Assembly (NCBI GenBank): GCA_963776345.1
Contig: CAVZMH010000022.1
Location: 320,001-384,000 of the forward strand
Reading direction: 5' to 3'
DNA: 64,000 nucleotides
DNA from: an uncultured delta proteobacterium
GTDB lineage: Bacteria; Myxococcota; Myxococcia; Myxococcales; Myxococcaceae
A model generated the notes under the pieces. The model was not told the DNA's origin. It saw only the letters and a program-made list of their open reading frames with translations, and made no database searches. Position numbers and translations under genes: made by a program. Each line of letters starts with the position of its first letter. The stretch's first letter is position 1. Below are positions 2,973-61,456 of the stretch, in pieces.

Positions 2973-4487
2973 ATGCGCCAGCTTCGATCGTTCCTCGCCG
3001 TCGCCCTCGCAGCGATCTCGCTGGCCGGCTGCTCGAGCTCCTCGACGCCGCCGCCGCCTCCTCCTCCGGTTGACCCGTACCTGTACACGGCGCCGCCCGC
3101 CACGACGCCGGCCGCCAGCCTCGCCCCGGACACCTGGATCGCCCACCACCACGACGACCTGTTGCCGTTCTGGACCAGCAACGAGGCGCTCGGCGCGCCG
3201 GTCGGCAACTTTCCGACCTGGCGCGGGATGAATGGCGCGGTCACGGCCAACACCGCCCGCAAGCCGCGCATGATGGGGCGGCAGATCTACGCCTACGCCA
3301 TGGGCTACATGCTGACCGGCGACGAGTCGCTGCTCGCCAACGCCCGCGCCGGCACCGACTGGCTCCTGGCCCACGCCGTCGACACCAACGGCGGCTGGCA
3401 CGCCGACCTAAATCTCGACGGCACGCCGCTGGGCGCCGGGACCCGCTGGTCCCAGGACCTCGCCTACGATCTCATGGGACCGGCGGCGTACTTCTTCGTG
3501 ACCCGCGACGCCACGGCGGAGCAGGTGGTGCTGGCCGGGCGCGACGCCCTCTTCGATCCGGCCCGCTTCTGGGACGCCGCCAGCGGCCGGATCAAGGACG
3601 GGCTGGACGCCACCATGACCACCGAGCAGTGGATGGGGGCGACGGGGAGCTGGCAGCTGGTGGCGCAGCTCGACCCCGTCACCGCCTTCGAGCTGCTGGT
3701 CCAGCCGGTGCTCACCGATCCGGCCCGGCAAGCCCAGGCGCTCGGCGACCTGCGCACTCTGGGGACGCTGGTGCGCAACCGCTTCTGGCAGGACGGGATC
3801 TTCTGGGGCTCGACCGGCGACATCGGCACGTACGGGAGCGACCACACCGACTACGGCCACATCCTCAAGTCCTACTGGGCGCTCTTGCTCATCGACAAGC
3901 GGCTCGACGACCGGCCCTTCGCCTCGTTCCTGGCCACCAACGCGCCGGTCACGCTGGGGCAGGCCTACGACGCCAGCTACGACCGCTGGGCCAAGAGGCC
4001 CACCGGCCCGACCACGGTCGCGTACGGCTCCGACTGGTGGGCCTACGCCGAGGGCGATCAGCTGGCGGCAACGCTGGCGCTGCACGATCCAGCCTGGATC
4101 TCGAAGGTCGACCTGACCTCGACCCACTTCCGCGCCGACTACGTGGACCGGAGCCGGCCGGCGCGCGAGCTGGTCTCGTCGGTCTCGCGGACCGGGAGCT
4201 GGGTCTACCCCTGGCCCGACACCGACACCGCCAAGTGCAACGAGTGGAAGAACGGCTTCCACTCCACCGAGCACGCCCTGGTGATGTTCCTCTTCGGCCA
4301 CTACCTGGCCGGCACGCCGGCGCCGCTCTACTTCGCCTTCCCCGCGGCCCAGGTGGACGCGCTGGCGAAGGCGGCCCGCCCCTACACCTTCCAGGGGCGG
4401 TACGTGAGCCACGAGGACCTGGGGGCCATCGCGTCGGATCCGGCCGGCCGGCACAAGGTCAGGGTCCTCTTCGACCAGCTCCGGTAG
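2973..4487 (+). CDS. Lipoprotein with N-acylglucosamine 2-epimerase (AGE)-like (alpha/alpha)6 domain
   Basis: Lipobox LAGC, Pro-rich linker; GRQIYAYAMGYMLTGD, DYGHILK, WKNGFHSTEH resemble AGE-family motifs. Confidence 0.65.
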   Translation: MRQLRSFLAVALAAISLAGCSSSSTPPPPPPPVDPYLYTAPPATTPAASLAPDTWIAHHHDDLLPFWTSNEALGAPVGNFPTWRGMNGAVTANTARKPRMMGRQIYAYAMGYMLTGDESLLANARAGTDWLLAHAVDTNGGWHADLNLDGTPLGAGTRWSQDLAYDLMGPAAYFFVTRDATAEQVVLAGRDALFDPARFWDAASGRIKDGLDATMTTEQWMGATGSWQLVAQLDPVTAFELLVQPVLTDPARQAQALGDLRTLGTLVRNRFWQDGIFWGSTGDIGTYGSDHTDYGHILKSYWALLLIDKRLDDRPFASFLATNAPVTLGQAYDASYDRWAKRPTGPTTVAYGSDWWAYAEGDQLAATLALHDPAWISKVDLTSTHFRADYVDRSRPARELVSSVSRTGSWVYPWPDTDTAKCNEWKNGFHSTEHALVMFLFGHYLAGTPAPLYFAFPAAQVDALAKAARPYTFQGRYVSHEDLGAIASDPAGRHKVRVLFDQLR

Positions 4488-55668: not shown

Positions 55669-57224
55669 GCGCGCCCGGGCGAATCCTGACCGGCCGCGAC
55701 CACCCCGTGAACACCACCCTGCACTGTGACGTGGTGGTGGTGGGCTCGGGGGCCGGCGGCTCGGTTCTCGCCGAGCGGCTCACCGCGCGCGGCCTCGAGG
55801 TCATCCTGCTGGAGGAGGGCGGGTACTGGACGCGCCACAGCTTCGACGGGCGCGAGGACCACTCGTACCCGCGGCTGTACCAGGAGATGGGCAACCGGGC
55901 GACCGACGACCAATCGGTGCTCATCCTCCAGGGCCGGAGCGTGGGCGGCGGCACCACCGTGAACTGGTGCACCTCGTTCCGCACCCCGCGCGAGGTGCTC
56001 GAGCGCTGGCGCGACCAGCACGGGGTGAAGGGGCTCACCGAGGAGGCGCTGGTCCCCCACTGGGAGGCCATCGAGAAGCGGCTCCACATCGCGGAGTGGC
56101 CGCTGGAGCGGATGAACGCCAACAACCGCGTGCTCTGGGACGGGTGCGGAAAGCTCGGGTACGCGCGCGGGCTGGTCCGGCGCAACGTGAACAACTGCGC
56201 CGACCTCGGCTACTGCGGCCTGGGCTGTCCGCTCGACGCCAAGATGTCGATGCTGGTGACGCTCATCCCCGACGCGGTGGAGAAGGGGCTGACGGTGCAG
56301 GCCAACGCCTCCGTCCGCCGGATCCTCCTGGGGAGCCGGCGGGTGGGCGGCGTCGAGGCGATGCTGCTCGACCCCGAGACGGACCGGCCGACGGGCGTCA
56401 CCCTCACGGTGAAGGCGAAGACGGTGGCGGTGTGCGGCGGGGCCATCAACTCGCCGGCGCTGCTGCTCCGGTCGGAGCTCGACGGCAACGGGAACGTGGG
56501 GAAGCGTTTCTTCCTCCACCCGGTGGTCATCATGAGCGCGCTGATGCCCGAGCCGGTGGTGCCCTGGAGCGGCGCGCCGCAGGCGGCCTACTCGCGGCAC
56601 TTCAGCGAGCGCGGTGCGGGCAAGGTGGGTTTCCTGCTCGAGGTCCCGCCGATCATGCCGCTCATCGCGGCGACGGTGTTCCCCGGCATCGGCGAGCAGC
56701 ACCAGGCGCTGATGGAGCAGCTCGCGTACATCCAGAGCACCATCGCCATCTGCCACGACGGGTTTCTCCCGGACGACGTGGGCGGGACGGTGAAGCTCCG
56801 GGACCCCCAGGAACGGCGGGTCTCCATCGACTACCCGCTCCGGCCGTTCCACTTCGAGGCCTTCCGCGCGGCGTGCAAGGAGATGGCCCGCATCCAGTTC
56901 GCGGCGGGGGCCCGAGAGGTGCGCTCGCTCCATTCGGCCCCGGTGCGGATCCAGAAGGCGGCGGACATCGACGCCGCGCTCGACGCCGCCCCCTGGGAGC
57001 CGGGCCGGGTGCGAGTGGCCACCGCGCACCAGATGGGTGGCTGCGCGATGGGCGGGGACCCGCGGACGTCGGTGGTGGACAGCACGCTCCGCTACCACGG
57101 GCTGGACAACCTCTTCGTGGTGGACGGCTCGGTGTTTCCGACGTCGCTGGGGGTCAACCCCCAGGAGACCATCTTCGGGCTCGCCCGCTGGGCGAGCCAG
57201 TTCGTCGCCGCGGCGACCGCCTGA
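55665..57224 (+). CDS. GMC family oxidoreductase (long-chain alcohol oxidase-like)
   Basis: VVVGSGAGG, VGGGTTVNW, C..LGYCGLGCP, AHQMGGC.MG, VDGSVFPTSLGVNPQ. Confidence 0.9.
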   Translation: MSAPGRILTGRDHPVNTTLHCDVVVVGSGAGGSVLAERLTARGLEVILLEEGGYWTRHSFDGREDHSYPRLYQEMGNRATDDQSVLILQGRSVGGGTTVNWCTSFRTPREVLERWRDQHGVKGLTEEALVPHWEAIEKRLHIAEWPLERMNANNRVLWDGCGKLGYARGLVRRNVNNCADLGYCGLGCPLDAKMSMLVTLIPDAVEKGLTVQANASVRRILLGSRRVGGVEAMLLDPETDRPTGVTLTVKAKTVAVCGGAINSPALLLRSELDGNGNVGKRFFLHPVVIMSALMPEPVVPWSGAPQAAYSRHFSERGAGKVGFLLEVPPIMPLIAATVFPGIGEQHQALMEQLAYIQSTIAICHDGFLPDDVGGTVKLRDPQERRVSIDYPLRPFHFEAFRAACKEMARIQFAAGAREVRSLHSAPVRIQKAADIDAALDAAPWEPGRVRVATAHQMGGCAMGGDPRTSVVDSTLRYHGLDNLFVVDGSVFPTSLGVNPQETIFGLARWASQFVAAATA

Positions 57225-57238
57225 GCCCTGGATAAGGA

Positions 57239-57280
57239 CCGAGGCCCGGGAGCGGTCGCGGTCGCTCCGCCGGGCCTCGG
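57239..57280. terminator. GC-rich hairpin between convergent genes
   Basis: ccgaggcccgg...ccgggcctcgg inverted repeat just after the GMC stop. Confidence 0.55.
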
Positions 57281-57422
57281 GTTCGGCCGTCGCCGGCCGC
57301 TCTTCTCAAGAAATGGGGTCCCGGAGTCGCGGCGGTCTCCCCACGAGTCAGAGCGCAGGAGGGGCCCATGCGCTCGAATCCGCCACGCCCCCGGGAGTCC
57401 CCCCGAGGTTCCCGCTCTCCGT

Positions 57423-57599
57423 TCAGGCCCTCGGTCCGCCCACCTGGGCGGTGTGGTTGGAGTAGTTGTCGATCAGCGCGGCGCTCGCGCCCACGTAGCC
57501 GGCGACCAGCAGCGCGCCGCTGAGGATGAAGGGGATGGGGCTCCACCGGCGGGCGGAGCGGAACAGCTGGGGATTGGGGTTGGTGGTCTCGGGCTTCAT
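57423..57599 (-). CDS. Small single-TM protein A (58 aa)
   Basis: GGAGG RBS; MKPETTNPNPQLFRSARRWSPIPFILSGALLVAGYVGASAALIDNYSNHTAQVGGPRA. Confidence 0.8.
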   Translation of the reverse strand: MKPETTNPNPQLFRSARRWSPIPFILSGALLVAGYVGASAALIDNYSNHTAQVGGPRA

Positions 57600-57637
57600 G
57601 GCGTCCTCCGTCAGGTGTCTCGATGAGGCTGGGACAT

Positions 57638-57653
57638 TGCACCGGCGGTGCCA
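57638..57653 (-). promoter_or_regulatory. sigma54 -24/-12 promoter of protein A
   Basis: TGGCACCGCCGGTGCA (GG-N10-GC), about 40 nt upstream of ATG. Confidence 0.8.
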
Positions 57654-57750
57654 GCCCGGCTCGACCCCGCCGGCCCCGGAGTTCCGGGCGGTTGTCGGCT
57701 CCCCGGTCGTGCAGGGCATTGCGCAGCGTGTGACAAGGCTCCGCCCGGAT

Positions 57751-57791
57751 GTCGCGTCCGGTGCAACGTGCCCGTTTGCGGGACGGGCGGT
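57751..57791. promoter_or_regulatory. Putative enhancer (UAS) pair upstream of A
   Basis: GTCGC-N7-GCAAC (57751-57767) and TTTGC-N7-GCGGT (57775-57791). Confidence 0.55.
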
Positions 57792-57880
57792 GTGCGCATC
57801 CGGCCCGCTCGCGGAAAGCACGACGGCCCGGGACGTCCATCGTCCCGGGCCGCCGGGTGTTGCCTGCCGCCGCCTCGCGC

Positions 57881-58045
57881 TCAGGCGATCTGGTCGACGC
57901 TCGAGGGGACCACCGAGTAGTCGCGGATCATCACCGCGGCGCCACAGAAGTACCCGAGCACCACGAGGATTCCCACGAGGAGCCCATGCGAGCGACGGCG
58001 AGAGGTCTGGAAGATGTTGGAAACGGACTCGGTCTGGGGACTCAT
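57881..58045 (-). CDS. Small single-TM protein B (54 aa)
   Basis: GGAGGAG RBS; MSPQTESVSNIFQTSRRRSHGLLVGILVVLGYFCGAAVMIRDYSVVPSSVDQIA. Confidence 0.8.
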   Translation of the reverse strand: MSPQTESVSNIFQTSRRRSHGLLVGILVVLGYFCGAAVMIRDYSVVPSSVDQIA

Positions 58046-58087
58046 CGTCATCTCTCCTCCGGCGGCATGCCGGCGCCGCGCTGCCTG

Positions 58088-58103
58088 TGCAGCGCTCGTG
58101 CCG
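58088..58103 (-). promoter_or_regulatory. sigma54 -24/-12 promoter of protein B
   Basis: CGGCACGAGCGCTGCA (GG-N10-GC), about 43 nt upstream of ATG. Confidence 0.75.
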
Positions 58104-58147
58104 GGCGCGGCGCGGCGTGGTTGCGGGCGCTTACGGGCTGAGCGCAC

Positions 58148-58205
58148 ACCGCCACCCGTGCAACCGCGGTCACGCCTGTGCCGTGGATGGTGCGTCCGGC
58201 GCAAC
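58148..58205. promoter_or_regulatory. Putative enhancer (UAS) pair upstream of B
   Basis: ACCGC-N7-GCAAC (58148-58164) and GGTGC-N7-GCAAC (58189-58205). Confidence 0.55.
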
Positions 58206-58223
58206 GGCGCCGGCCCGCTCGGG

Positions 58224-59633
58224 TCAATCCCGGACGTGGTGCCGCTTGATGAGCCGGTAGAGGTGCACCCGGTCGATGTCGGCCGAGGCCGCCGCCTGGG
58301 ACACCTTGCCGCCGTGCAGCTGGAGAAGCGCCTCGACGTACTGCCGCTCGAAGGCGTCGAGGGCCCGCCGGCGGGCTTCCGGATAGGGCACCCGGGGGTC
58401 GATGGTGTTCGGCGCGTCGTCGGCCGGACGTCCCGTCTCCTCGCCCTCGCCCGGGAGCAACGTTTCTTGAAGCACCACGCAGCGCTCGAGGTGGTTCCGC
58501 AGCTCCCGGATGTTCCCCGGCCACGCGGAGCGCTGCAGCTGGGCGATGAAGGGCGGATCCACCAGGGTGGCCTTCACCCGCGCGTCGGCGCCGAGCCCGC
58601 TGAGGAGCTTGTCGACGATCAGCGGGATGTCCTCGGCCCGCTGGCGCAGAGCAGGGAGGGGGATCTTCACCACTGCCAGACGGAAGTAGAGGTCCGACCG
58701 GAAGCGGCCGGCGTTCACCTCCGCGCGGAGGTCGCGGTTGGTGGCGGTGATGATGCGCACGTCCACCGGGGTGTAGGTGTTGCTCCCGAGCTTCCGGATC
58801 TCCCGCGCCTCGAGAACCCGCAGCATCTTCGGCTGGAGCTCGACCGGAAGCTCGCCGATCTCGTCGAGGAACACCGTGCCGCCCCGCGCCTCCTCGAAGA
58901 CGCCCACCCGCCGGTTGACCGCCCCGGTGAAGGCGCCCTTCTCGTGCCCGAACAGCTCGGACTCGAGCAGGTTGGGCGGGAGCGCGCCGCAGTCCACCAC
59001 CAGGAAGTGGTGTTCGCGCCGGCTCGACTGGCGGTGGATGGACTCGGCCGCCTGGCTCTTCCCGGTGCCGGTCTCGCCCTCGAGGAGCACGGTGGAGTCG
59101 GACGCCGCGGCACGCTCCATCAGGGCGAAGCTCATCCGCGCGGCCACCGAGGTGCCCACCAGCGAGCCGAAGCGAGGGAGCTCCGAGAGCTGCAGCTTGG
59201 TCTTCTCTCCGGAGAGCTCGAAGCGGAGCACCACCCGCCCGAGCTGGAGCAGACTCCCGTTGCGGACCGCCGCCTCCTTCACCAGCACGCCGTCGACCAC
59301 GGTGCCGTTCCGGCTCGCCAGGTCCTTGGCCCAGACGCCCTTGTCGTCGACCAGGAGCTCGCAGTGGAAACGGGACACCGTCCGCTCGTCGAGCAGGACG
59401 TCGTTGAGCGGGTGACTCCCGATGGAGGTTCGCTCGCCGGCGGACTCGAAGCTCTGGCCCGCGCCGGCACCTTCCACCACCCGCAGCCGGAAGCGGCGCA
59501 CGTCCGGAGGGCCGGCAGACCGGCCTCCGATTCCGTACGTCGCCGTCGCGTGCGCGTCCCGCTCCGCCGACGGTGGAGAGTCGACGCTGTTCGGCTCCTC
59601 GGGGATTTCCCGACTCTTCTCGCGCCCTGGCAT
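58224..59633 (-). CDS. FHA-domain sigma54 enhancer-binding protein (FHA-AAA+-Fis HTH); start may be 59639
   Basis: FHA (IGSHPLND...VSRFH...DLASRNGT), GETGTGKS, ESELFGHEKGAFTGA, FLDEIGE, WPGNIRELRN, C-terminal HTH; no receiver domain. Confidence 0.95.
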   Translation of the reverse strand: MPGREKSREIPEEPNSVDSPPSAERDAHATATYGIGGRSAGPPDVRRFRLRVVEGAGAGQSFESAGERTSIGSHPLNDVLLDERTVSRFHCELLVDDKGVWAKDLASRNGTVVDGVLVKEAAVRNGSLLQLGRVVLRFELSGEKTKLQLSELPRFGSLVGTSVAARMSFALMERAAASDSTVLLEGETGTGKSQAAESIHRQSSRREHHFLVVDCGALPPNLLESELFGHEKGAFTGAVNRRVGVFEEARGGTVFLDEIGELPVELQPKMLRVLEAREIRKLGSNTYTPVDVRIITATNRDLRAEVNAGRFRSDLYFRLAVVKIPLPALRQRAEDIPLIVDKLLSGLGADARVKATLVDPPFIAQLQRSAWPGNIRELRNHLERCVVLQETLLPGEGEETGRPADDAPNTIDPRVPYPEARRRALDAFERQYVEALLQLHGGKVSQAAASADIDRVHLYRLIKRHHVRD

Positions 59634-59667
59634 CCGCATCCGCGAACCTACTCCCGAAGGCGACGCC

Positions 59668-59716
59668 TTGACCGGCCGCGCAACAGCGGATCCCGCTCCG
59701 TGGCGCCGACCGCAAC
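59668..59716. promoter_or_regulatory. Putative enhancer (UAS) pair between the activator and protein C
   Basis: TTGAC-N7-GCAAC (59668-59684) and GTGGC-N7-GCAAC (59700-59716). Confidence 0.5.
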
Positions 59717-59767
59717 GCGGGCGACGTAAGACCCAAGTGAATTCAAGGAGATGGAGTCCGTTCGGGC

Positions 59768-59783
59768 TGGCCTCAGGGGTGCA
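59768..59783 (+). promoter_or_regulatory. sigma54 -24/-12 promoter of protein C
   Basis: TGGCCTCAGGGGTGCA (GG-N10-GC), about 58 nt upstream of ATG. Confidence 0.7.
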
Positions 59784-59841
59784 ATCCGATCCTGGCGTGG
59801 CCGGCGACGAACGCTGGCCTCCCCTTCGACCGGAGACCGCC

Positions 59842-60018
59842 ATGAAGACCTCGCAGACCTCGCTCAAGTCCTTCGAACAGATCGCCCGCAGCCGTGGCCT
59901 GGGCACGCTCGCCGTCGGCGGGCTGCTGATCGCCTTCTGGCTCGGTGGGCACGGCGCGCTCTACAGCGCCTACCGCGTCACCCGCTCCCACGCGCCGGTG
60001 GTGGTCGAGGCGGAGTGA
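59842..60018 (+). CDS. Small single-TM protein C (58 aa)
   Basis: GGAG RBS; MKTSQTSLKSFEQIARSRGLGTLAVGGLLIAFWLGGHGALYSAYRVTRSHAPVVVEAE. Confidence 0.78.
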   Translation: MKTSQTSLKSFEQIARSRGLGTLAVGGLLIAFWLGGHGALYSAYRVTRSHAPVVVEAE

Positions 60019-60027
60019 GGACGAGAG

Positions 60028-60059
60028 AGGGGCGTCGACCGGGACCCGGTCGAAGCCCT
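60028..60059. terminator. Hairpin between convergent proteins C and D
   Basis: gggcgtcgaccgg-gac-ccggtcgaagccc inverted repeat. Confidence 0.6.
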
Positions 60060-60079
60060 TCGACCCATGGGCACCGGAC

Positions 60080-60259
60080 CTACCTCGAGTGCACCAGGAT
60101 GGTCGTCTCTCCCGCGAGCGGCGGCAGGGAAGACCGGGAGAAGTCCTGCATCAGCGCCGCGGAGAGCAGGAAGTACGCGAGGATCAGCGCTCCGCCGAGC
60201 AGCAGCCCGGACTCGCCGAAGACCGCGGAGCGGGGTGCATCGAAGAGCTGTGGCTGCAT
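60080..60259 (-). CDS. Small single-TM protein D (59 aa)
   Basis: GGGGAG RBS; MQPQLFDAPRSAVFGESGLLLGGALILAYFLLSAALMQDFSRSSLPPLAGETTILVHSR. Confidence 0.78.
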   Translation of the reverse strand: MQPQLFDAPRSAVFGESGLLLGGALILAYFLLSAALMQDFSRSSLPPLAGETTILVHSR

Positions 60260-60305
60260 GATGGTCTCCCCTCGGCGCGCATCCGCCGGTGCGGCGCCTG
60301 GCGAC

Positions 60306-60321
60306 TGCACCGCGAGTGCCA
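60306..60321 (-). promoter_or_regulatory. sigma54 -24/-12 promoter of protein D
   Basis: TGGCACTCGCGGTGCA (GG-N10-GC), about 47 nt upstream of ATG. Confidence 0.8.
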
Positions 60322-60412
60322 GAGACCCGGGCCCTCGGACACCCGGGCCTGAGGCAGACCGCGCGGCGTGCCGAGAGGTGCGGATGGAGCGGGGCGAGGC
60401 GACCTCTCGCGC

Positions 60413-61456
60413 TCAGCTCCGTCGCAGGCTCGCGAGCCGCCCCTTCGTCCCGGGCCACTGCCGCTCGGGCATCCGCGAGAGCAGATCCAGCACCGTGTCC
60501 TGGAGCGTCTCCTGGGGATCCCGCGCCACGAAGCCCAGCTCGCGCTCGGCCTTCCGGGCGTCCAGCCAGAACCAGTGCTCGCCGATGTCCACGCTCGCGG
60601 CGTCCAGCGCCGGCTCGCGTCCGCGGGCCTCGGCCAGCTTCTCCAGCAGCTTCGCCCCGGCGACGTTGACCTTCGAGGGAAGCCGCAGCCGCGGCGCGGG
60701 GACGCCGGAGATGCGCTCCAGCCGGCCGAAGAACTCGGACATCGACATGTTCACGCCGAGGAGGTGCTTTCCCCCCACCTCGCCCCGCTCCAGCGCGGCG
60801 ACGAACGCCTCGGCCGCGTCGCGCACGTCGACGAAGCTGATTCCCCCGCCGGGCATCGCCGGCAGGTCCCGCTGGAGGAACTTCATCACCGTCCAGGTCG
60901 AGGACAGCCGCTCGTCGCCGGGCCCGAGCAGCAGGCTCGGGTTGAGCACCACCACCGGGGGGCCGTGCTTCCTCGTGAACTCGAGGACCAGCCGCTCCTC
61001 GTAGATCTTCGAGAGGTAGTACGGCCAGCGCCCGACGACGTCGATCGGCGGGAGGTCCTCCTCGGTCGCCACCCGCTCGGTGCGCGACACGGCGACGGTC
61101 CCGCTGGTGGACGCGAGGACCAGCCGCTGCAGGCCTCCCCGCGCCCGGACCTCCTCCAGAAGCCCGCGGGTGCCGGCCACGTGCAGCCGGTACATCGCCG
61201 GCCCGTCCGCGGGGTCGAAGGAGACCATCCCCGCGAGGTGGTACAGCACGTCCACCCCGGCCAGCGCCCGCTTCACCGCGGCGCGGTCGCCGAGGTCGCC
61301 CTGCACGAACTCGCCGTGCGACAGGAGCTCCGCCGCCGGCGCGTTGCGACCCAGCATCCGCACCCGGTGCCCCGCGGCCGCGAGGAGAGGAACGACGGCC
61401 TTCCCCAGGAATCCGGTGGCCCCGGTGACCAGGATGCTCCGTGGCGTCCCGCTCAC
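60413..61456 (-). CDS. NAD-dependent epimerase/dehydratase (ElbE-like)
   Basis: LVTGATGFLG, YHLAG, YYLSK, LNPSLLLGPGD; GTGA coupling to upstream gene. Confidence 0.88.
   Translation of the reverse strand: MSGTPRSILVTGATGFLGKAVVPLLAAAGHRVRMLGRNAPAAELLSHGEFVQGDLGDRAAVKRALAGVDVLYHLAGMVSFDPADGPAMYRLHVAGTRGLLEEVRARGGLQRLVLASTSGTVAVSRTERVATEEDLPPIDVVGRWPYYLSKIYEERLVLEFTRKHGPPVVVLNPSLLLGPGDERLSSTWTVMKFLQRDLPAMPGGGISFVDVRDAAEAFVAALERGEVGGKHLLGVNMSMSEFFGRLERISGVPAPRLRLPSKVNVAGAKLLEKLAEARGREPALDAASVDIGEHWFWLDARKAERELGFVARDPQETLQDTVLDLLSRMPERQWPGTKGRLASLRRS

Follow-up and report, generated by a model that had tools for sequence, protein, structure and literature searches.

PspF is a sigma-54 activator that is encoded divergently from its target and controls a small regulon of envelope proteins; it lacks an input domain and is restrained by PspA. 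MgrB, which carries a periplasmic cysteine pair and acts on PhoQ, resembles AcrZ, KdpF and Blr in having 45–60 residues and a single transmembrane segment (TM). MgrB binds the PhoQ kinase and inhibits it (PMC10723866). For Myxococcus xanthus, enhancer-binding proteins that carry an FHA domain have been described (Jelsbak, Givskov and Kaiser 2005; MXAN_4899), and two further papers report natural-product promoters as targets of MXAN_4899 (PMC7910581, PMC4902038). The sites of Nla28 are tandem repeats of CT(C/G)CG(C/G)AG that often lie inside genes (PMC7910581).

Here we describe a locus from an uncultured delta proteobacterium of the Myxococcaceae, located in a stretch of 64,000 nucleotides (the window), in which genes for tiny membrane proteins surround an activator whose predicted FHA - AAA+ (GAFTGA) - HTH order matches that of the M. 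xanthus proteins. An earlier note, made from the letters alone, had pointed to four ORFs of 54–59 aa, two on either side of the activator, and all four were found as described. Features of the locus are as follows, with distances of palindromes counted upstream of the promoter motif:

57423..57599, minus strand: gene A, 58 aa, single-TM protein, the most conserved paralog
57638..57653, minus strand: sigma-54 -24/-12 site of A
57718..57734, minus strand: proximal palindrome of A, from footprinting, 80 nt upstream, score 10.8
57751..57767, minus strand: distal palindrome of A, from footprinting, 113 nt upstream
57881..58045, minus strand: gene B, 54 aa, single-TM protein (56 aa from an upstream ATG, alternative start 58051)
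58088..58103, minus strand: sigma-54 site of B
58157-58173: degenerate palindrome of B, ~69 nt upstream, score 2.1 here, the strong one in relatives
58189..58205, minus strand: palindrome of B, 101 nt upstream
58224..59639, minus strand: sigma-54 activator, FHA - AAA+ (GAFTGA) - putative HTH, 469–471 aa, start at 59633 or 59639
59668..59684, plus strand: distal palindrome of C, 99–100 nt upstream, score 6.5 here, 14 in relatives
59700..59716, plus strand: proximal palindrome of C, 67 nt upstream, score 14.9
59768..59783, plus strand: sigma-54 site of C
59842..60018, plus strand: gene C, 58 aa, single-TM protein
60015..60082: hairpin in the convergent C/D gap, probable shared terminator, fold -31 kcal/mol without shuffle control
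60080..60259, minus strand: gene D, 59 aa, single-TM protein
60306..60321, minus strand: sigma-54 site of D, without a palindrome of its own

As in the PspF system, the activator lies divergent from a target and the predicted regulon is a small one of envelope proteins, but an FHA domain is present here and no Psp family match was found in the scanned proteins. The proteins A–D have the size and single TM of MgrB, and a distant subfamily with a CxxxC motif likewise has a predicted periplasmic cysteine pair; in contrast to MgrB-type regulators, however, the family has no sequence match to them, is multi-copy and stands under predicted sigma-54 control. As for Nla28, upstream sites serve sigma-54 promoters, whereas the sites here are intergenic inverted repeats with a 7-nt spacer, paired and phased. 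Finally, while natural-product promoters are the reported targets of MXAN_4899, the predicted targets here are small envelope proteins.

Genes A–D are conserved protein-coding paralogs under coding selection. Each is preceded by a purine-rich ribosome-binding site (RBS) and encodes one hydrophobic 21-mer (mean hydropathy 1.55–2.18), in agreement with the RBS and single TM ascribed to each ORF before, and GC3 is 0.85–0.95 vs 0.45–0.56 for GC2. The mutual similarity of the proteins survives comparison with 5000 shuffles that preserve the composition of N-tail, TM and C-tail separately (A–B, p<0.0002; B–D, 0.0004; A–D, 0.002; A–C, 0.006); against the same shuffles, B–C (0.066) and C–D (0.17) are not significant, but C also scores together with A, B and D in the family profile. 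Orthologs were present in 9/12 (A), 10/12 (B), 11/12 (C) and 10/12 (D) of the fetched same-genus loci, that is, homologs are conserved in synteny with the FHA activator, and this synteny is kept in up to 12 same-genus genomes. Codon-model estimates of omega (GY+F3X4) are 0.056 for A, 0.22 for B, 0.18 for C and 0.20 for D, with 2dlnL values against omega=1 of 144, 80, 141 and 105, respectively; dN/dS is thus not near 1. The cruder NG86 estimates (A 0.29, B 0.70, C 0.52, D 0.51) understate selection at the GC content found here, and the codon-model values are preferred.

No match to the family was found in Pfam, NCBIfam (48 members) or PHROGs, in line with the earlier note, whose author knew of no described family for A–D. 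Blr, DWORF and SecE appeared as sub-threshold profile hits only, the ESM Atlas returned unnamed clusters at low recognition, and a literature search, with Jelsbak 2005, Jakobsen 2004 and Volz 2012 outside its scope, found no paper on the family or the palindrome described below. This genome carries 7–8 copies and the sister genus 3–5, whereas other genera have a single-copy form with a CxxxC pair (16/18). In the tree, gene C is closer to the unlinked paralogs E, F and G than to A, B and D. A further paralog, H (C3:162428, E 1e-4), is a probable member; matches at E above ~1e-3 in long open frames were counted as generic TM matches, and a match in G313 (L083) was discarded, being the anchor at the N-terminus of a protein of 270 aa.

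The proteins are predicted to be single N-in TM helices of 45–60 residues. A stretch of 22 uncharged residues ending in L-x-x-x-Y/F is flanked by a net charge of +1.85 on the N-side and 0.04 on the C-side (48 members), a bias that is absent from the CxxxC subfamily, and the structure model shows a single helix over residues 22–53. Conservation of TM and C-tail is.95/.95 in A,.77/.70 in B,.79/.65 in C and.85/.71 in D; the TM columns are as conserved as the C-tails or more so, unlike a disposable signal peptide. Flp and type IV pilins share the short basic leader followed by G/A/S and a hydrophobic stretch, but no pilus genes were seen near the locus and the prepilin site G|F-x-x-x-E, with its glutamate at +5, occurs in 0/48 members and 0/18 of the distant form, which speaks against the polymer subunits once considered, at least those of pilin type. 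Other assignments were dropped as well: the Tat motif R-R-x-hydrophobic-hydrophobic is found in 0/48 and 0/18, and a lipobox cysteine in only 1/48 and 1/18. N-tail threonines as ligands of the FHA domain were rejected too, with a Thr before the conserved Phe in only 37/48, and complex prediction for the activator FHA and protein A (score 0.00, controls not folded) gives no evidence either way.

In FHA domains, the phosphothreonine pocket comprises Gly-Arg, Ser-x-x-His and Asn-Gly. The activator has an N-terminal FHA domain (PF00498, 52.9 bits, cut-off 20.7; best solved match GarA, E 2e-10), an AAA+ domain with the GAFTGA loop (PF00158, 220 bits) and a putative C-terminal Fis-type HTH that scores 20.2 bits in PF02954, below the cut-off of 22, in a region conserved across the clade; a conserved RBS-like block precedes the start at 59639. 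It has Gly-Ser where GarA has Gly-Arg but retains S-R-x-H and N-G, and G-S-H is invariant in 16/16 clade members. Since the Arg that usually binds phosphothreonine is replaced by Ser, the proposed link to Ser/Thr kinase signalling is less secure than the earlier note took it to be. A 377-aa kinase with a TM at its end and no sensor domain adjoins the activator in 6/8 genomes of the sister genus, but kinases are common here (43 hits), so that such a neighbourhood is weak evidence. No kinase lies within ~4 kb in the 12 own-genus loci, which sets the locus in this genus apart from the M. xanthus FHA activators, and an ortholog of the sensor-less kinase is absent from this genome.

The activator forms one clade with the 459-aa M. 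xanthus protein WP_140792883 (support 100/99; 60% identity), to which it is a sister lineage and not an ortholog (branch 82/88). MXAN_4899 is given as 459 aa in the S5 legend of PMC12773805, and from length only WP_140792883 is probably MXAN_4899. Orthologs of the activator with at least 71% identity were present in 12/12 genomes of the own genus and 8/8 of the sister genus, the two genera with the multi-copy small-protein family, and a family gene stands right behind the activator in 4/4 fetched sister-genus activator loci. Family genes are absent at all eight loci (L013-L020) of a paralogous activator with 55–59% identity, and a search for related loci with the activator returned distant activators only.

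A GG-N10-GC sigma-54 site is conserved ahead of 44/44 A–D genes examined. Moreover, phylogenetic footprinting revealed a palindrome, GTNGC-N7-GCNAC, upstream of the A, B and C orthologs, mostly paired at a distance of ~32 nt and in phase on the helix; none was found upstream of D in 11 loci examined. The 73 training palindromes cluster at 57, 67–71, 78–79, 99–101 and 109–112 nt, with a period of about 10.8–11 (R=0.79, orthologs not being independent). Shared upstream sites, 80–150 nt from the start, are present at A, B, C, E, F and G and absent from D. The distal palindrome of C immediately precedes the activator gene, which is transcribed divergently. The earlier note was silent on the sigma-54 site of each gene, the common palindrome and the paralogs beyond the locus.

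Matrices trained on relatives only were applied to 1232 promoter-like sites in the genome. The ten best sites belong to A, C, G, E, F and B, three of which (E, F and G) are unlinked to the locus, and to four small-protein or lipoprotein genes, comprising lipoproteins and a second, putatively co-regulated small-protein family, which is marked by an A-L-A-D site and by a motif conserved at the C-terminus. The palindrome occurs at 18/144 strong sigma-54-like sites; 297 column-permuted versions of it averaged 3.2 such occurrences and reached 12 at most. The exact pattern gave 13 matches in five genomes as compared to six for a reversed control; 12/13 precede family genes, one of which (L201/L219) was found through the DNA motif alone. 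Three paralogs of the sister genus (L046, L050, L056) have weak sites only, H has no promoter above threshold, and both promoter and palindrome are missing from the CxxxC subfamily; the family is thus not dependent on the activator in every case. A 42-aa TM ORF behind candidate site C14:113710 was dropped, as no match over the ORF was found in 5/5 relatives.

In large-genome Myxococcaceae, sister activators (60–64% identity) adjoin the paired palindrome in 7/13 loci from which the small genes are missing. These pairs lie at 67–72 and 100–104 nt, in 6/7 cases before a GG-N10-GC site, and stand before lipoprotein-plus-kinase operons; one such relative is an M. xanthus strain. The other 6/13 loci, among them that of the M. 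xanthus type with 459 aa, showed no pair nearby. The presence of the pair beside sister activators even without small genes ties the palindrome to this activator clade, and among the C-termini listed for the 28 activator-like proteins of the genome, only this one has the recognition helix of the clade. We therefore infer, with strong confidence, that this activator is the protein that would read the palindrome. As the palindrome is common to A–C and has further copies in the genome, the activator is likely to turn on a larger group of tiny envelope proteins as a set. The earlier proposal that it drives a diversified small-protein family gains from the sigma-54 site of each gene, from a palindrome that tracks the clade and from the co-occurrence of activator and family; judged by sequence, regulation of the small genes by the activator is well supported.

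With moderate confidence, we propose that the activator reads the paired palindrome and switches on the small genes, whose products would be single inner-membrane helices that tune a membrane partner through contacts between helices. Two activator dimers would likely occupy GTNGC-N7-GCNAC sites spaced by some three helical turns, at about -80 to -140 from the start, and loop to the sigma-54 polymerase as other enhancer-binding proteins do; activation would also reach the paralogs outside the locus and further small envelope genes. Because the C palindromes overlap the activator's own upstream region, autoregulation is likely. Gene D, which has no sites, likely borrows the pair of C, 590–640 nt away, and such dependence would explain why D stays in the cluster. 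Our best guess, by analogy with MgrB, is that the products act as uncleaved single-pass modulators: N-in proteins that might use a common F-x-x-x-R(R) patch on the cytoplasmic side, together with a helix rich in small residues, to bind a single class of membrane partner, with paralog-specific periplasmic tails possibly diversifying the effect. The favoured partner may be a membrane Ser/Thr kinase that feeds the activator, giving MgrB-like feedback; the sensor-less kinase beside the activator in the sister genus and the palindrome before lipoprotein-plus-kinase operons in the sister loci speak for this guess. A more far-reaching version is unlikely: a kinase-linked activator would fire at least ten tiny envelope genes of two unrelated multi-copy families. 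Their outer tails, conserved for each paralog and borne on a common membrane stalk, would amount to a peptide code, either displayed or released, with which myxobacteria signal through or feed back on their many membrane Ser/Thr kinases. In this version, the activator would have captured a single-copy ancestor, which thereby acquired promoter and palindrome and was later amplified in two genera.

The same regulon could also produce secreted peptides, a possibility we regard as rather unlikely. Signal peptidase I would cut after the G/A/S run and free A/V-L-x-x-x-Y peptides of 18–30 residues, a distinct signal or matrix peptide per paralog. A loose -3/-1 rule is satisfied at one aligned column in 36/48 members and 17/18 of the distant form, and a strict [AVST]-x-A occurs somewhere in the zone in 29/48 and 11/18; yet the column lies inside a hydrophobic run that extends three residues beyond the site, the full stretch having TM length, and C has a His at a neighbouring position. 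The tails are conserved per paralog, that of A being nearly invariant, but the putative signal shows the same degree of conservation. The CxxxC pair of the distant form and the A-L-A-D site and C-terminal motif of the second family would fit secretion as well. Small Psp proteins and the cyanobacterial single-helix Hli proteins are stress or structural membrane proteins under their own regulators. By analogy, the helices of the regulon might co-assemble as homo- or hetero-oligomers and reinforce or remodel the inner membrane or the envelope of resting cells, which we consider unlikely. All targets with good support are small proteins of the membrane or exported ones, many copies are retained under purifying selection, and the helix is glycine/alanine-rich, although in the 48-member set its small residues form no clear 100-degree face and, as noted, Psp matches are missing. 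The tie of MXAN_4899 to fruiting and sporulation (PMC4902038) would also suit this role.

It is improbable that the promoters are real but served by another activator, with the clustering due to tandem duplication at a convenient site. The number of activator-like proteins in the genome, the lack of palindromes at D and the ability of M. xanthus activators to act as hetero-oligomers (title of Volz 2012, cited in PMC12288465) would allow it; however, the palindrome accompanies this activator clade into genomes without small genes, the phylogenetic profiles of family and activator match, and no second protein among the C-termini listed has the same recognition helix. Least probable of all are membrane-damaging toxins, type I or holin-like, under transcriptional control. 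Size and single helix are what speaks for this role, to which the earlier note had alluded and which finds no support: Pfam, NCBIfam and PHROGs gave no toxin-family match, none was found in phages, no Rfam RNA lies at 57200-60450 (where undescribed RNAs would escape), the leaders are short, and chromosomal synteny beside housekeeping genes is stable.

Taken together, our analysis defines a small-protein family that automated annotation has left as hypothetical and points to a regulon in which nearly all products are tiny envelope proteins. In addition, it provides a concrete predicted binding site for a clade of myxobacterial FHA activators, M. xanthus proteins included, in which direct targets could be tested simultaneously with what the FHA domain does. 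If the helices do modulate membrane Ser/Thr kinases, they would represent a counterpart of MgrB for eukaryote-like kinases.

Small ORFs A–D flank a gene for an FHA-domain sigma-54 enhancer-binding protein (the activator) in a genome of 5.1 Mb with a GC content of about 72%, the cluster being bordered by GMC oxidoreductase and NAD-dependent epimerase genes:

57423-57599, minus strand, small ORF A
57881-58045, minus strand, small ORF B
58224-59639, minus strand, activator
59842-60018, plus strand, small ORF C
60080-60259, minus strand, small ORF D

The four ORFs are placed as the earlier note had claimed, each with a ribosome-binding site and a single hydrophobic helix (GC3 0.85-0.95). Their proposed mutual similarity exceeded composition-preserving segment shuffles in four of six pairs (p at most 0.006) and failed for B-C and C-D. 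The activator matches FHA and Sigma54_activat in Pfam, its Fis HTH match being sub-threshold. Directly 3' of B lies a perfect hairpin (57820-57885; fold -44 kcal/mol), which likely terminates the B transcript ahead of the A enhancer.

Activator orthologs with 80-89% identity occur in 12/12 genomes of the same genus (g1), and among 12 fetched loci A was found in 9, B in 10, C in 11 and D in 10, with order and orientation kept. Absent copies mainly reflect contig or fetch ends; A and a partial D of genome G002 were recovered by a later profile search. G005 has a degenerate B, no D was found in G010, and in G012 the C frame continues into a longer one. Codon-model dN/dS (omega) is not near 1: values of 0.056 (A), 0.22 (B), 0.18 (C) and 0.20 (D), all fitting far better than omega=1, indicate purifying selection, and the first 200 activator codons yield 0.03. 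None of 44 copies has a stop in the gene frame, whereas 40 of them show an interrupted +1 frame. Judged by their sequences, A-D are genuine genes.

Profile searches, the first restricted to 29-109 residues, collected matches that number 219 when clustered at 90% identity and 36 when clustered at 50%. Among the 120 of these 219 proteins that were listed, none has a Pfam domain, and all are unnamed or hypothetical save one 'uncharacterized membrane protein'. Matched relatives carry the label Myxococcaceae bacterium, and all convincing matches are confined to one family of the order. That no described family was recognizable is borne out: A-D matched zero Pfam families above cut-off, 48 members gave no meaningful match in Pfam or NCBIfam, seven gave none among PHROG profiles and C none in phages; a literature search found no description of the family or of the palindrome introduced below. 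Members begin with a variable N-terminus and the motif F-x-x-x-R(R). Next come about 22 residues free of charge, which include a conserved Gly and a G/A/S run, and then L-x-x-x-Y/F and an 11-26-residue tail conserved inside each paralog, not across paralogs. Prepilin, Tat and lipoprotein readings were rejected, as the respective motifs all fail in these sequences.

Other genera (g5, g6, g29, g71 and others) carry a related subfamily, present as a single copy and marked by a C-terminal cysteine pair, CxxxC (hhalign 97%, E 7e-11). It lies near class II aldolase and EutN genes, often with tatBC; at loci L064-L081 its neighbours are a class II aldolase gene, a pair of EutN/CcmL genes and, in many cases, tatB-tatC. 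Neither promoter nor palindrome was found at CxxxC loci. This distribution, compared without a root, suggests that an older single-copy gene was later captured and then amplified under the activator.

A GG-N10-GC site lies a short way upstream of 44/44 A-D genes, fitting the sigma-54 consensus TGGCACG-N4-TTGC(T/A) (PMC7910581). Upstream alignments revealed conserved blocks forming an inverted repeat, GTNGC-N7-GCNAC, present twice before A and C (spacing 32-33 nt) and once, strongly, before B; alignment and matrix searches of relatives' loci did not find it upstream of D. Its distances fall at 57, 67-71, 78-79, 99-101 and 109-112 nt, on a single helical face, for 73 sites that come from related sequences and hence carry no p value. 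An AT-rich conserved stretch between the C palindromes and promoter (59730-59760 and orthologs) occupies the position expected of an IHF-type bending site.

With matrices whose training set left out this genome but included the A, B, C, E/F and G orthologs, A ranked 1st, C 2nd, G 3rd, E 8th, F 9th and B 10th among 1232 promoter-like sites; the paralogs E, F and G lie on separate contigs and have no activator alongside. A first scan, trained on A/B/C orthologs only, ranked F and G 7 and 8 of 756, E not being listed. The palindrome occurs at 18/144 strong promoters, whereas 297 permuted palindromes averaged 3.2 and reached 12 at most. Searches for the exact pattern yielded 13 matches versus 6 controls in five genomes (12 ahead of family genes) and 9 versus 2 in five g1 genomes (8 ahead of B or C). 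A motif match also revealed a 54-aa member missed by the protein profile (single-comparison E value 8e-9; hhalign probability 50%). E and F (L021:4020-4196, L022:3811-3990) represent a recent duplication with about 250 nt of upstream DNA copied along; their G007 counterpart sits amid mobile-element-like genes (L057), and in G007 a threonyl-tRNA-synthetase-like gene lies between two family genes (L060:1713-1895 and 4000-4194). At G000:C1:54673-54793, three tandem G-G-T-G-C-A-A-C repeats precede a strong sigma-54-like site beside a further kinase-activator gene; they may form a related enhancer that serves another activator.

The remaining top-ten promoters precede two genes of a second small-protein family, a 127-139-aa lipoprotein and a 307-aa lipoprotein whose gene precedes a kinase fragment; the scanned products had zero Pfam matches. 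The second family (G000:C16:354898-355840; L216, L220-L229; 76 and 83 aa) has a TM or signal segment, then G-x-D-x-G-P-G-S-D-E, and occurs in 12/12 g1 genomes as tandem copies preceded at 87-91 nt by a strong palindrome. The conserved acidic G-P-G-S-D-E motif is missing from a third, shorter copy, and among 200 genomes one weak match lay outside g1. The 127-139-aa, two-cysteine lipoprotein (G000:C17:76170; L218, L231-L235) has the palindrome at 90-91 nt in 5/5 relatives and an apparent frameshift in this genome.

Activator orthologs at 71% or more were found in g1 (12/12) and a sister genus, g24 (8/8), only, among 207 family genomes; these two genera are also the ones in which the small-protein family reaches three or more copies. 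In 4/4 fetched g24 loci the gene behind the activator is A-like. Of 12 g24 family genes, nine have a strong palindrome at 68-69 nt, with another at 99-101 nt in seven, and the sites of the remaining three are weak. Sister activators (60-64% identity, large-genome genera) show paired palindromes at 67-72 and 100-104 nt in 7/13 loci (L203, L205, L207-L210, L213), in a cassette where they and a sigma-54 site precede an operon for a 470-520-aa lipoprotein matching no Pfam family and a Ser/Thr kinase, which converges on the FHA activator gene; a profile search gave no convincing small-protein family match in these genera. The activator, g24 orthologs and sister activators form one 100/99 clade apart from the genome's other activators, and among the C-termini listed its recognition helix is not shared by any of the other 27. 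The earlier proposal that the activator drives the family gains support from sigma-54 sites, a palindrome following the activator clade and co-occurrence in g1/g24, and the neighbouring activator very probably regulates through the palindrome. The FHA pocket arginine usually binds phosphothreonine; this position is serine throughout the clade, which argues against a straightforward route from kinase to FHA domain. An M. xanthus protein of 459 aa falls within the clade and agrees in length with MXAN_4899 (459 aa; PMC12773805), which published reports describe as regulating fruiting and sporulation as well as secondary metabolism (PMC4902038, PMC4880591, PMC11980068). In M. xanthus, the sister lipoprotein-kinase cassette offers a convenient test case.

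As to function, the A-D products may act on a membrane partner as uncleaved N-in helices, a reading we hold at about even odds because the membrane segment is conserved as well as any other protein part. Two less probable but serious alternatives are cleavage to secreted peptides and, slightly behind it, a role as structural or stress effectors. For the uncleaved helices, the likeliest partners would be membrane Ser/Thr kinases, a weak suggestion drawn from the kinase operons that the palindrome precedes in sister loci, the MgrB-PhoQ precedent of a small membrane protein acting on a kinase (PMC10723866), and a sensor-less Ser/Thr kinase adjoining the activator in 6/8 g24 genomes. The latter has a C-terminal TM and short tail, no sensor domain, and is divergent from the activator (L045:1135-2259, L048, L054:1018-2151). 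The kinase step is weak because no ortholog of this sensor-less kinase was found in this genome.

Taken together, the multi-copy small membrane protein family is real and, as far as searched, previously undescribed, and its predicted place inside a sigma-54 regulon is well supported. The type of wiring is already known; its outputs and the palindrome site are, as far as searched, new.
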